From positions 37,219 to 101,218 of the forward strand of contig DASRJL010000110.1 in assembly GCA_035649495.1 (NCBI GenBank): a stretch of 64,000 nucleotides of DNA. The letters run 5' to 3'. The notes under the pieces were generated by a model. It worked only from the letters and a program-made list of their open reading frames with translations, did not search any database and was not told where the DNA came from. The position numbers were made by a program, and so were the translations under genes. Below, piece by piece: positions 14,527-16,074 of the stretch; within the stretch, counting starts at the first letter, position 1; each line of letters opens with the position of its first letter. Source of the DNA: Burkholderiales bacterium (GTDB lineage Bacteria > Pseudomonadota > Gammaproteobacteria > Burkholderiales > SG8-41).

Positions 14527-14555
14527 TTGACCGAATTTGCGTCAGGGGCTAATAT
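14527..14555 (+). promoter_or_regulatory. Sigma-70-like promoter (TTGACC - 17 nt - TAATAT)
   Basis: -35 element at 14527-14532 and -10 at 14550-14555, with a 17-nt spacer. It is the only obvious promoter upstream of the endonuclease ORF and the tRNA-Asn gene. Confidence 0.5.
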
Positions 14556-14614
14556 AGGCCTGTTTCCAATTCGGCACCAAGCGCTTTTCTCACGCTTATT
14601 ACTCCCCGATCGCG

Positions 14615-15037
14615 ATGGATGCGGCCGTAAGGCACACGCAGAACAGCAAATCGGTTGGAGATATCACTCAGTCGCAGGTGATGGCGGCTTTGTTGAAGCA
14701 TGGGAAGAACGTGCTCATGCCATTTGGAGATAACTGTCGGTACGACCTCGTAGTGGAACAGGATGGTCTGTTCTTCCGGATTCAATGCAAGACCGGGCGG
14801 ATGAATCGTGGCGCGGTGGTGTTTGCAGTGGCGTCCTCGCAGTATCACAGAGGGGGCAAGCGTCAGGATTATCGGGGGCAGGTAGATGCGTTCGGAATTT
14901 TCTGTCCGGACAATGGGAAGGTCTATATAGTGCCTATAGATGATCTTCCTTTGGCAAGGGAGGCCAAGTTGCGGCTCAAGCCTCCCGGAAATTCGCAGGA
15001 AAAGCGAATAAGATGGGCCGCGAAATATGAGATTTGA
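14615..15037 (+). CDS. PD-(D/E)XK endonuclease, I-Ssp6803I-like (group-I-intron-associated family, PDDEXK_5)
   Basis: The 140-aa ORF contains GDITQSQVMAALLKHG..VLMPFGDNCRYDLVV....FFRIQCKTG and DYRGQVDAFGIFCP...VYIVP. This pattern matches my recollection of the small PD-(D/E)XK homing endonuclease of the Synechocystis tRNA-fMet intron. G+C is lower than the flanks. The stop codon (15035-15037) directly abuts tRNA nucleotide 1. Confidence 0.7.
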   Translation: MDAAVRHTQNSKSVGDITQSQVMAALLKHGKNVLMPFGDNCRYDLVVEQDGLFFRIQCKTGRMNRGAVVFAVASSQYHRGGKRQDYRGQVDAFGIFCPDNGKVYIVPIDDLPLAREAKLRLKPPGNSQEKRIRWAAKYEI

Positions 15038-15353
15038 TCCCCGATAGCTCAGTTGGTAGAGCGACGGACTGTTAACCCAAACCGCTCCGAGCGCTTTGGC
15101 TCAAGGCGGGACAAAAGGCAGCACCGAGGCGAAAGCTTCGGAGGAAAAGGCGTCAAAGTCGGTGAACCCTAACGGCCGCAAGGCCTACGGCAACGCCGAG
15201 CCAAGCCGCCCCGAAAGGGCGGAAGGTGTAGAGACTAGACGGCGCCCGCCTAAAGGCTTCCGGCCCACGGCGAAGGCATAGTCCACGTCCTTGTGAAAAC
15301 AGGGGGCACGGGTAATCCGCAGGTCGCTGGTTCGAGCCCAGCTCGGGGAGCCA
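15038..15353 (+). tRNA. tRNA-Asn(GUU), interrupted in the anticodon by a group I intron
   Basis: Exon 1 (15038-15072) plus exon 2 (15313-15353) give a 76-nt cloverleaf: TCCCCGA TA GCTC AGTTGGTA GAGC G ACGGA CTGTTAA TCCGC AGGTC GCTGG TTCGAGC CCAGC TCGGGGA G CCA. The only imperfection is an A27-C43 mismatch. CCA is encoded. Confidence 0.9.
15073..15312 (+). mobile_element. Group I (IC3-like) self-splicing intron, no internal ORF
   Basis: The core strings GGCAACGCCGAGCCAAGC (15189-15206) and GAAGGTGTAGAGACTAGACGGCGCCCGCCTAAAGGC (15222-15257) nearly match the Azoarcus tRNA-Ile intron as I recall it. GAAA-capped hairpins are present (CCGAGGC GAAA GCTTCGG; CCTTGT GAAA ACAGGGG). A U precedes the 5' splice site and the intron ends in G. 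This is the only split that restores a 7-nt anticodon loop. Confidence 0.9.
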
Positions 15354-15360
15354 TTAATCA

Positions 15361-15397
15361 ATAGGTTATGAGTGTCACTCGTAACCTATTTTTCTTT
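15361..15397 (+). terminator. Rho-independent terminator after tRNA-Asn
   Basis: Inverted repeat ATAGGTTATGAGTG / CACTCGTAACCTAT followed by TTTTTCTTT. Confidence 0.6.
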
Positions 15398-16074
15398 GTA
15401 GGCACTGGTGAAGGCGGTAAATGCCATCGCCCAGAGACCAATACCGATGCCCCGCCACGTACTTGAATGAACGTCACCTGCCGGCTTCGGGTGTCGAACC
15501 GCTTTTCACGACTCGTACAGCGAACGAGATGTTCCAGCTGCGGGCAAATAACGAGCTGCTACGAGTTGGGGGTCGGAATCGAACCGGCCCAGCTTCATAG
15601 GGGAAAATGGAGGGTAACCGGGTCGGCCGTACCCTTACCCGTGCCGTTACCCACTGCCGACCGCCCTACCCTTCCGGCCCGATGTTACAGCCTCCAGGCC
15701 GCGTCGCCCTGGCGCCTTGGCGAAGACCACGGACACCGCCCCGGCGCGCGGCAGCGGCCACCAGCGCGAGCACCGGGGCTCGGGCTGGCGTGAGCCTGAG
15801 ACGTGACCGAGAGCTAGGCGTCTACCTGCGACGCGATGTATGAAAACGCTTGATCGTTGTAACTCGGTCCCTGCCCGAAGTGCGGGAAGCGCGCGGGCAA
15901 GACTCACGAGACCAGTGTGGGAAAGTTTCGGCATTTCGTCATGTGCGGAAACTGCACCTGGGCGCCACCGTCGGCGCGTACCCGTGTAAGCGCTCTGGTA
16001 TTTGGGGTAATCGCATTCTTGGTGTCGCTGATTGTCCACGCGGTCAGACAACCCTACGGTGGTGGGGAGGAACG

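Follow-up and report, generated by a model that had tools for sequence, protein, structure and literature searches.

A free-standing I-Ssp6803I-family endonuclease gene flush with an intron-split tRNA-Asn gene in a betaproteobacterium: a probable case of collaborative homing

The window analysed here, a 64,000-nucleotide (nt) stretch of the genome of a Burkholderiales bacterium (GenBank assembly GCA_035649495.1, contig DASRJL010000110.1, positions 37,219 to 101,218), carries a homing-endonuclease open reading frame (ORF) that ends flush with the 5' end of a tRNA-Asn(GUU) gene, which is itself split by a group I intron without an ORF. The best explanation of this arrangement, and one that we hold to be probable, is collaborative (trans) homing: the ORF inserted at the 5' edge of a betaproteobacterial tRNA-Asn(GUU) gene and serves as the partner of the ORF-less intron. 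This reading is built on the anatomy of the locus, the family membership of the ORF, the boundaries of its insertion, a series of alleles among relatives, purifying selection, and the separate histories of ORF and intron. A preliminary description of the window had noted the resemblance of the ORF to I-Ssp6803I and the position of the ORF outside the intron, and had proposed that a cassette inserted between the tRNA promoter and the mature tRNA and that the pairing of ORF and intron matches a collaborative-homing intermediate on the way to mobile introns.

The ORF (14615–15037, forward strand) runs from an ATG at 14615 to a TGA at 15035–15037 and encodes 140 amino acids. Its product matches the Pfam family PF11645 (PDDEXK_5) with 136.7 bits (E 6.7e-40; cut-off 26.1) over profile positions 2–136 of 138, and its only significant sequence match in the PDB is 2OST, which is I-Ssp6803I (E 3e-8). 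An AlphaFold2 model built from 16 homologues has a predicted local distance difference test score of 83.6; its top four Foldseek matches are the four chains of 2OST (E 7e-9, TM score 0.62–0.71), followed by SPARDA nuclease domains and archaeal Holliday-junction resolvases. The hidden Markov model match and the best fold match, the two checks that had been proposed for the resemblance, thus both bear it out. Residues D44, Q57 and K59 are invariant in a family alignment of 16 diverse members and line up with the YD...QxK (QVK) active-site motif of I-Ssp6803I, and an acidic residue stands at position 16 in every case (D in the window and the relatives closest to it, E in more distant members). 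We take these four positions to be the catalytic residues, in line with an assignment reportedly made by Zhao et al. 2007. A protein identical to the ORF product appears in public data under the label 'group I intron-associated PD-(D/E)XK endonuclease [Burkholderiales bacterium]', and a scan of the ORF against NCBIfam gave no match.

Base composition marks the ORF as foreign: its GC content is 52.7% and its GC content at third codon positions (GC3) is 0.61, compared with a GC3 of 0.87 in neighbouring genes. The ratio of non-synonymous to synonymous divergence (dN/dS) lies at about 0.05–0.09, with a median of 0.085 among 19 collinear ORFs and with dS saturated, which indicates strong purifying selection. 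A Shine-Dalgarno sequence is not evident 5' of the ORF.

The TGA directly abuts position 15038, nucleotide +1 of the tRNA, and the junction at 15037/15038 holds as first described. Exon 1 (15038–15072, forward strand) comprises nucleotides 1–35 with U35 as its last base and has the same sequence as exon 1 of relatives; exon 2 (15313–15353, forward strand) comprises nucleotides 36–76, with the CCA encoded. Joined, the exons fold as a tRNA-Asn(GUU) cloverleaf that is identical at 76 of 76 positions to the uninterrupted tRNA-Asn of a related locus, L090. The 240 nt that separate them at 35/36 (15073–15312, forward strand) end in G and, judged by a sub-threshold match to Rfam RF00028 and a P1 pairing in which RNAfold joins exon CUGU(U) to the internal guide GGCAG, represent an ORF-less, putatively self-splicing group I intron. 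Across 28 loci with an intron between U35 and U36, a U always precedes the splice site and a G always ends the intron. The ORF ends at 15037, outside the intron and 35 bp (exon 1) from its insertion site. It is therefore a member of the I-Ssp6803I family that is not intron-encoded, a free-standing endonuclease gene adjacent to an ORF-less intron.

Against RF00028 the window intron scores 31.9–32.5 bits (E 1e-6 to 5e-6) where the gathering score is 50; the same-site introns of L001, L026 and L087 score 60–67 bits. At 68% over 145 nt, its core is similar to that of the Azoarcus tRNA-Ile intron, and we presume it to be Azoarcus-like (IC3-like). Its P1 loop contains an inserted hairpin of ~37 nt (CCGCUCCGAGCGCUUUGGCUCAAGGCGG, 15076–15112), placed after the 5' splice site and before the internal guide; the other intron types lack this hairpin, which may explain some of the low Rfam score.

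Standard tRNA detection does not recover this gene: ARAGORN with default settings finds zero tRNAs in the whole window. With its intron option the program calls a tRNA-Thr(GGU) with an intron at 33/34, a call that we rejected because only the junction between U35 and U36 fits the U/G rule in 28 loci, and because joining at that junction reproduces the uninterrupted tRNA-Asn exactly. The ARAGORN labels Asp(GUC) and Thr(UGU) given to relatives (L002, L003, L005 and others) were set aside too, the 35/36 splice site being misplaced in them. The locus thereby explains how annotation misses some intron-containing tRNA genes.

Upstream of the ORF lies a sigma-70-type promoter (TTGACC-17-TAATAT; 14527–14555, forward strand) with 9 of 12 consensus matches. 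The preliminary description had called a promoter of this type, and it is kept in relatives, with −35 and −10 hexamers shared by ORF-bearing, intron-only and empty alleles alike. We infer that it is the tRNA gene's own promoter, which now drives the ORF too. The tRNA-Asn leader that follows (14556–14602, forward strand) is predicted to be transcribed from a start near 14562 and is homologous to the leader before tRNA +1 in the empty alleles L090, L091 and L096. Downstream, a terminator-like hairpin of the intrinsic type followed by a T run (15360–15400, forward strand) closes the promoter–ORF–tRNA unit. The cassette has no promoter of its own and would use the promoter and terminator of the tRNA. 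A small hairpin, judged by eye, is predicted in the first ~20 nt of the transcript (14563–14585 in the window, and in homologous leaders); its stems vary by locus yet can pair (GCGCC...GGCGT, GTCC...GGAC, TTCC...GGAA), and it could serve the tRNA transcript as a stabilising stem-loop at the 5' end.

The left boundary of the cassette is marked by the octamer TCCCCGAT, which occurs at 14603–14610 (forward strand) and again at 15038–15045 as the first 8 nt of the tRNA, at the coordinates originally given. As a statistically significant repeat the octamer was rejected: the window has 4 copies where 3.1 would be expected, and a count of 4 was reached in 36 of 100 shuffles. Its meaning comes from position, not count: in an alignment of promoters and leaders, the upstream octamer of ORF-bearing alleles falls exactly on tRNA nucleotides 1–8 of L090, L091 and L096. 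Because it is in register with the tRNA start of these empty alleles, the upstream copy reads as a vestige of the former tRNA-Asn 5' end. The best explanation is that insertion stranded at least 8 nt of the earlier tRNA 5' end upstream and restored a whole tRNA directly after the stop codon. This supports a left boundary at 14603–14610 and an insertion between promoter and mature tRNA, as had been suggested. In several relatives the vestige consensus, TCCCCGAT(A/T)CCGCA-ATGG, resembles tRNA nucleotides 1–19 (TCCCCGATAGCTCAGTTGG), and the insertion junction may thus lie in the D-loop, with the ATG of the ORF at the junction. Among distant family members, a duplicate of the tRNA 5' end upstream of the ORF gave no general signal.

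Relatives of the locus, including alleles that lack the ORF, were recovered through homologues of a divergently transcribed AsmA-family gene. In the empty alleles (L090, L091 and L096), the AsmA gene and the TTGACC/TAATAT promoter are followed by a leader that runs straight into an uninterrupted tRNA-Asn. Occupied alleles with both ORF and intron comprise the window, L001–3 and L007–14. Decayed alleles also exist: L087, on a 4.0-Mb contig, keeps the intron, and of its ORF no more than the final 9 nt (GAGATTTGA) stand before the tRNA; L093 carries the intron, lacks the ORF and shows a scar of 4–5 nt at most; L089 has the intron and the first ~20 codons of the ORF fused to its last 14 nt. A trace of the ORF is thus clear in L087 and L089 and only possible in L093. 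Elsewhere the ORF is frameshifted (L019) or truncated (L060). The preliminary description had called for a comparison of relatives in search of alleles lacking the ORF, the intron or both; those lacking both are L090, L091 and L096, and those with an intron and no ORF are L087 and L093. Taken together, the empty, occupied and degenerate alleles at an orthologous site match the life cycle of a homing endonuclease, from invasion through fixation and decay to loss.

The presence/absence polymorphism appears to be recent. Occupied L002 and empty L090 share 89% identity in the AsmA protein and 82–92% in flanking DNA, which indicates that they are close relatives polymorphic for the insertion. Their identity dips in the leader and across the first 150 nt that follow downstream, which could reflect either the import of a tract or simply non-coding DNA free of constraint. 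Within the close clade the ORF adjoins an intron-bearing tRNA-Asn in 26 of 26 assessable loci, with none beside an intron-less tRNA, and synteny next to aminotransferase and AsmA genes is conserved among relatives. Two patterns that the preliminary description had named as contrary to its reading were looked for and not seen: the 26 ORFs all sit beside an intron-bearing tRNA-Asn, and genomes lacking the ORF carry the octamer once only, as the tRNA 5' end itself. The taxonomic labels of three metagenome-assembled genomes (MAGs), L002, L003 and L004, look unreliable; they read 'uncultured Streptomycetaceae' or 'Enterobacteriaceae', and all three share the AsmA/aminotransferase/tRNA-Asn synteny, at 65–89% protein identity, with betaproteobacterial MAGs.

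The ORF and the intron seem to have travelled separately. Comparison of the window intron (15073–15312) with the introns of L001–L029 resolved three types. Most loci have type 1, whose members share 80–98% identity even in cases where identity between the ORFs is only ~50%; L005, L018 and L023 have type 2; the window intron forms the third type and is ~53% identical to type 1. In a neighbour-joining protein tree (140 residues, no support values), intron-associated ORFs form one clade, with ORFs beside intron-less tRNAs as outgroups, and the window ORF is nested among type-1-associated ORFs, next to L002. This nesting suggests that the intron partner was exchanged at 35/36 independently of the ORF. 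The histories of ORF and intron are, on these comparisons, separate, and the free-standing state beside a tRNA looks ancestral. In L005, L018 and L023 the TGA stop is changed to CGA (junction at ~3421 in L005), and the ORF reads through tRNA exon 1 to a TAG inside the intron, which adds RSPIAQLVERRTVK; a protein extended in this way is also in the database as P0077.

The idea of a collaborative-homing intermediate stands in one respect and not in another. An endonuclease gene does lie beside an ORF-less intron, as proposed. The arrangement was not fleeting, to judge from its persistence under purifying selection while the ORF diverged to ~50% identity.

The wider family shows the same attachment to tRNA genes. 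A profile search returned 7,720 family clusters (50% identity) at E <= 0.001, and family context was drawn from 86 loci that encode relatives (L001–L086), 83 of them assessable for a tRNA neighbour. A tRNA gene end lies within 0–70 nt of the end of ORF homology in 68 of the 83, mostly within 0–20 nt, and many family loci lie inside tRNA arrays. Partner tRNAs are Asn, Thr, Ala and Arg on the same strand, and Lys(UUU) tail-to-tail. The flush junction of TGA and tRNA recurs in ~20 loci. At nine loci (L033, L037, L038, L047, L050, L053, L072, L073 and L078) the ORF runs through the acceptor stem and its stop codon is the TAG formed by U8-A9-G10 of the tRNA, and RNase P cleavage would therefore remove the stop codon of the mRNA.

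Three loci carry cassettes inside a tRNA anticodon loop. In L043 (2409–3038), L053 (2448–3008) and L056 (704–1312, opposite strand), an ORF and an intact tRNA lie within the anticodon loop of a split tRNA: Asn in Asn in L043, Thr(GGU) in Thr(UGU) in L053, and Asn in Asn in L056. When rejoined, the split halves yield clean cloverleaves whose identities match, and both junctions of L053 show the 4-nt repeat TAAG. In place of an intron, such an element seems to bring along a replacement tRNA. Among the long-intron calls that ARAGORN made across an ORF, only these three give clean matching cloverleaves; L031 is ambiguous, and the calls in L005, L018, L023, L025 and L027, like those in L030, L050, L062, L072 and L078, look spurious and were discarded. 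Another form of interruption occurs in L068 (2861–3625, reverse strand) and L061 (from ~2985, reverse strand), where the tRNA-Lys(UUU) gene next to the ORF is split in its anticodon loop by an ORF-less group II intron of ~692 nt that scores 62.9 and 59.8 bits, respectively, against Rfam RF00029 (gathering score 40). Among the tRNA genes of bacteria, introns of group II are reported to be extremely rare (PMC13011429). Because the cassettes of L043, L053 and L056 sit inside anticodon loops, they point to the anticodon loop as the family's target, and the whole pattern points to interruption or replacement of the tRNA as the carrier's way to survive. Family members also occur in phages: in Pectobacterium phage My1 (L098, JX195166.1, 30019–30486) the annotated coding sequence My1_056, part of a tRNA cluster, has a 7-nt overlap with the beginning of tRNA-Ile, and in Salmonella phage SM5 (L100) a homologue starts 24 nt past tRNA-Met. 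A search of a plasmid collection gave a single weak match.

Under collaborative homing, the locus would work as follows. The tRNA promoter would yield one RNA with leader, ORF, intron-containing pre-tRNA and terminator, from which the ORF would be translated at a low level. RNase P would cut at 15037/15038 and the intron would splice itself out, giving a normal tRNA-Asn. The endonuclease would recognise and cut the uninterrupted anticodon stem-loop DNA of intron-less tRNA-Asn alleles, and the resident allele would be immune, with the intron splitting its recognition site. Repair off the occupied allele would copy the intron, and the ORF would be co-converted because it is only 35 bp from the break. 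After fixation the ORF could decay, leaving intron-only alleles.

Several points weigh against this account. The cleavage site is extrapolated from a homologue that is only ~25% identical, and the window intron falls under the Rfam gathering threshold. Exchange of the window's intron is not explained by simple co-conversion. The protein tree, a neighbour-joining one on 140 residues, carries no support values. Distant relatives lie flush with uninterrupted tRNA-Asn and tRNA-Thr genes, and an intron is therefore not generally required for self-immunity. Finally, an arrangement that looks largely syntenic and long-lived under purifying selection also fits a domesticated gene.

Of the alternatives, the one that survives best, at a level we would still call unlikely, is that the ORF is an ordinary free-standing homing endonuclease whose target lies elsewhere, for example at the junction of leader and tRNA 5' end, with the intron a bystander dragged along. 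An insertion at tRNA nucleotides 8–19 instead of the anticodon would suit such a target, as would the relatives beside intron-less tRNAs and the differing histories of ORF and intron. However, a tRNA 5' end is restored at the right border of the cassette, and insertion would change only the leader half of a site placed there. A bystander is also hard to square with the joint presence of ORF and intron in all 26 close-clade loci, with the fact that every ORF-less intron allele found keeps, or may keep, a trace of the ORF, and with the placement of relatives' cassettes inside anticodon loops. The characterised homologue I-Ssp6803I, moreover, is reported to cut the anticodon region of a tRNA.

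Domestication, in which the protein would serve the host or the intron (as a splicing aid, in regulation of the tRNA locus or in defence) and would no longer be mobile, we consider rather improbable. A dN/dS of ~0.08 across saturated synonymous divergence, conserved synteny with the aminotransferase and AsmA genes, and a stop codon exactly flush with the tRNA in many lineages are all what a domesticated gene would show. Yet alleles exist in which the ORF is deleted and the intron kept, L087 on its 4.0-Mb contig among them, and neither the intron nor the host therefore needs the ORF. Presence and absence vary among close relatives, the base composition is foreign, frameshifted and truncated copies occur (L019 and L060), and the catalytic residues are retained, all of which speak against domestication. 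Very improbable, despite an octamer count no higher than chance and the lack of an evident Shine-Dalgarno sequence, is that the ORF is a dead relic and the repeat a coincidence, leaving the intron-containing tRNA as the only functional part, since the 140-residue frame is intact with all family-invariant residues, purifying selection is strong and the octamer is in register with the tRNA start of the empty alleles.

The nearest characterised relative, I-Ssp6803I from the tRNA-fMet group I intron of Synechocystis (PDB 2OST), has the Pfam family, the fold and the D...QxK residues in common with the window ORF, and both are tied to a tRNA gene with a group I intron in its anticodon loop. They differ in that identity is ~25% and the window ORF lies outside the intron, flush with the tRNA 5' end; moreover, the I-Ssp6803I intron interrupts tRNA-fMet at 33/34 in a cyanobacterium (PMC13011429), whereas the window intron interrupts tRNA-Asn at 35/36 in a betaproteobacterium. 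Collaborative homing itself is known from two phage systems, F-CphI, which pairs with the psbA intron of cyanophage S-PM2, and mobE, which pairs with the I-TevIII intron of T4 nrdB (PMC3984707, PMC2790892). As in the window, a free-standing endonuclease gene there has as its neighbour, in the same gene, a group I intron that is ORF-less or defunct. Those cases involve phage protein-coding genes and other nuclease families; the window differs by its bacterial chromosome, tRNA gene and PD-(D/E)XK nuclease, by an ORF inside the tRNA transcription unit and by a natural allele series, and its targeting is putative.

Introns at the same site are known from a recent survey (Nakagawa et al. 2026; PMC13011429), which reports 35/36 group I introns, mostly of subgroup IA, in the tRNAs for Asn and Asp, mainly from Patescibacteria; among 4,934 complete genomes, 1 of 28 introns at 35/36 was in Pseudomonadota. 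These introns and the window intron share the site, the tRNA and the property of being missed by standard tRNA finders. Endonuclease genes were sought in that survey only inside introns of >500 bp, and the window's endonuclease partner lies outside its intron. Free-standing endonuclease genes embedded among tRNA genes, as the window ORF is, include T4 SegB (GIY-YIG) and HNH genes within tRNA clusters and arrays; SegB cuts within tRNA genes and drives the inheritance of neighbouring DNA (PMC2330249, PMC8421152, PMC5966550). These belong to other nuclease families and involve no intron, and a flush or overlapping junction of ORF and tRNA is not reported for them. The preliminary description knew of no earlier account of such an arrangement, and in the searchable literature, which leaves most subscription journals outside, we likewise came upon no account of a chromosomal, intron-bearing tRNA with a PF11645 gene flush against it, nor of cassettes with a replacement tRNA on board.

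How homing endonuclease genes and self-splicing introns unite is a long-standing question, and collaborative homing as an answer has been supported only by the two phage systems. The locus adds a candidate example from a bacterial chromosome, set in a tRNA gene and accompanied by a natural series of alleles and by evidence for the exchange of intron partners, and is thereby a natural test system. Its predictions are testable: the empty allele should be cleaved, the intron allele should be immune, and co-conversion should extend across 35 bp.

A broader reading, which we offer tentatively and hold at somewhat short of even chances, is that the I-Ssp6803I family forms a guild of elements that home into tRNA genes and have three interchangeable solutions to the problem of breaking an essential target. 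A member may live inside a group I intron, as I-Ssp6803I does; it may lie flush with a tRNA interrupted by an independent intron of group I or group II that has no ORF, as in the window and L068; or it may split its target tRNA and bring an intact replacement tRNA in the cassette, as in L043, L053 and L056. The locus in the window would then represent a stable and lasting partnership with an interchangeable intron. If this reading is true, expression of the endonuclease would compete with RNase P processing wherever the stop codon abuts the tRNA 5' end or falls inside it, often at the U8-A9-G10 of the tRNA. The family's enzymes would be small, new, tRNA-gene-specific nucleases, and the pressure that they exert, which on this reading drives self-splicing introns into bacterial tRNA anticodon loops, may be a reason that bacterial tRNA genes acquire introns.

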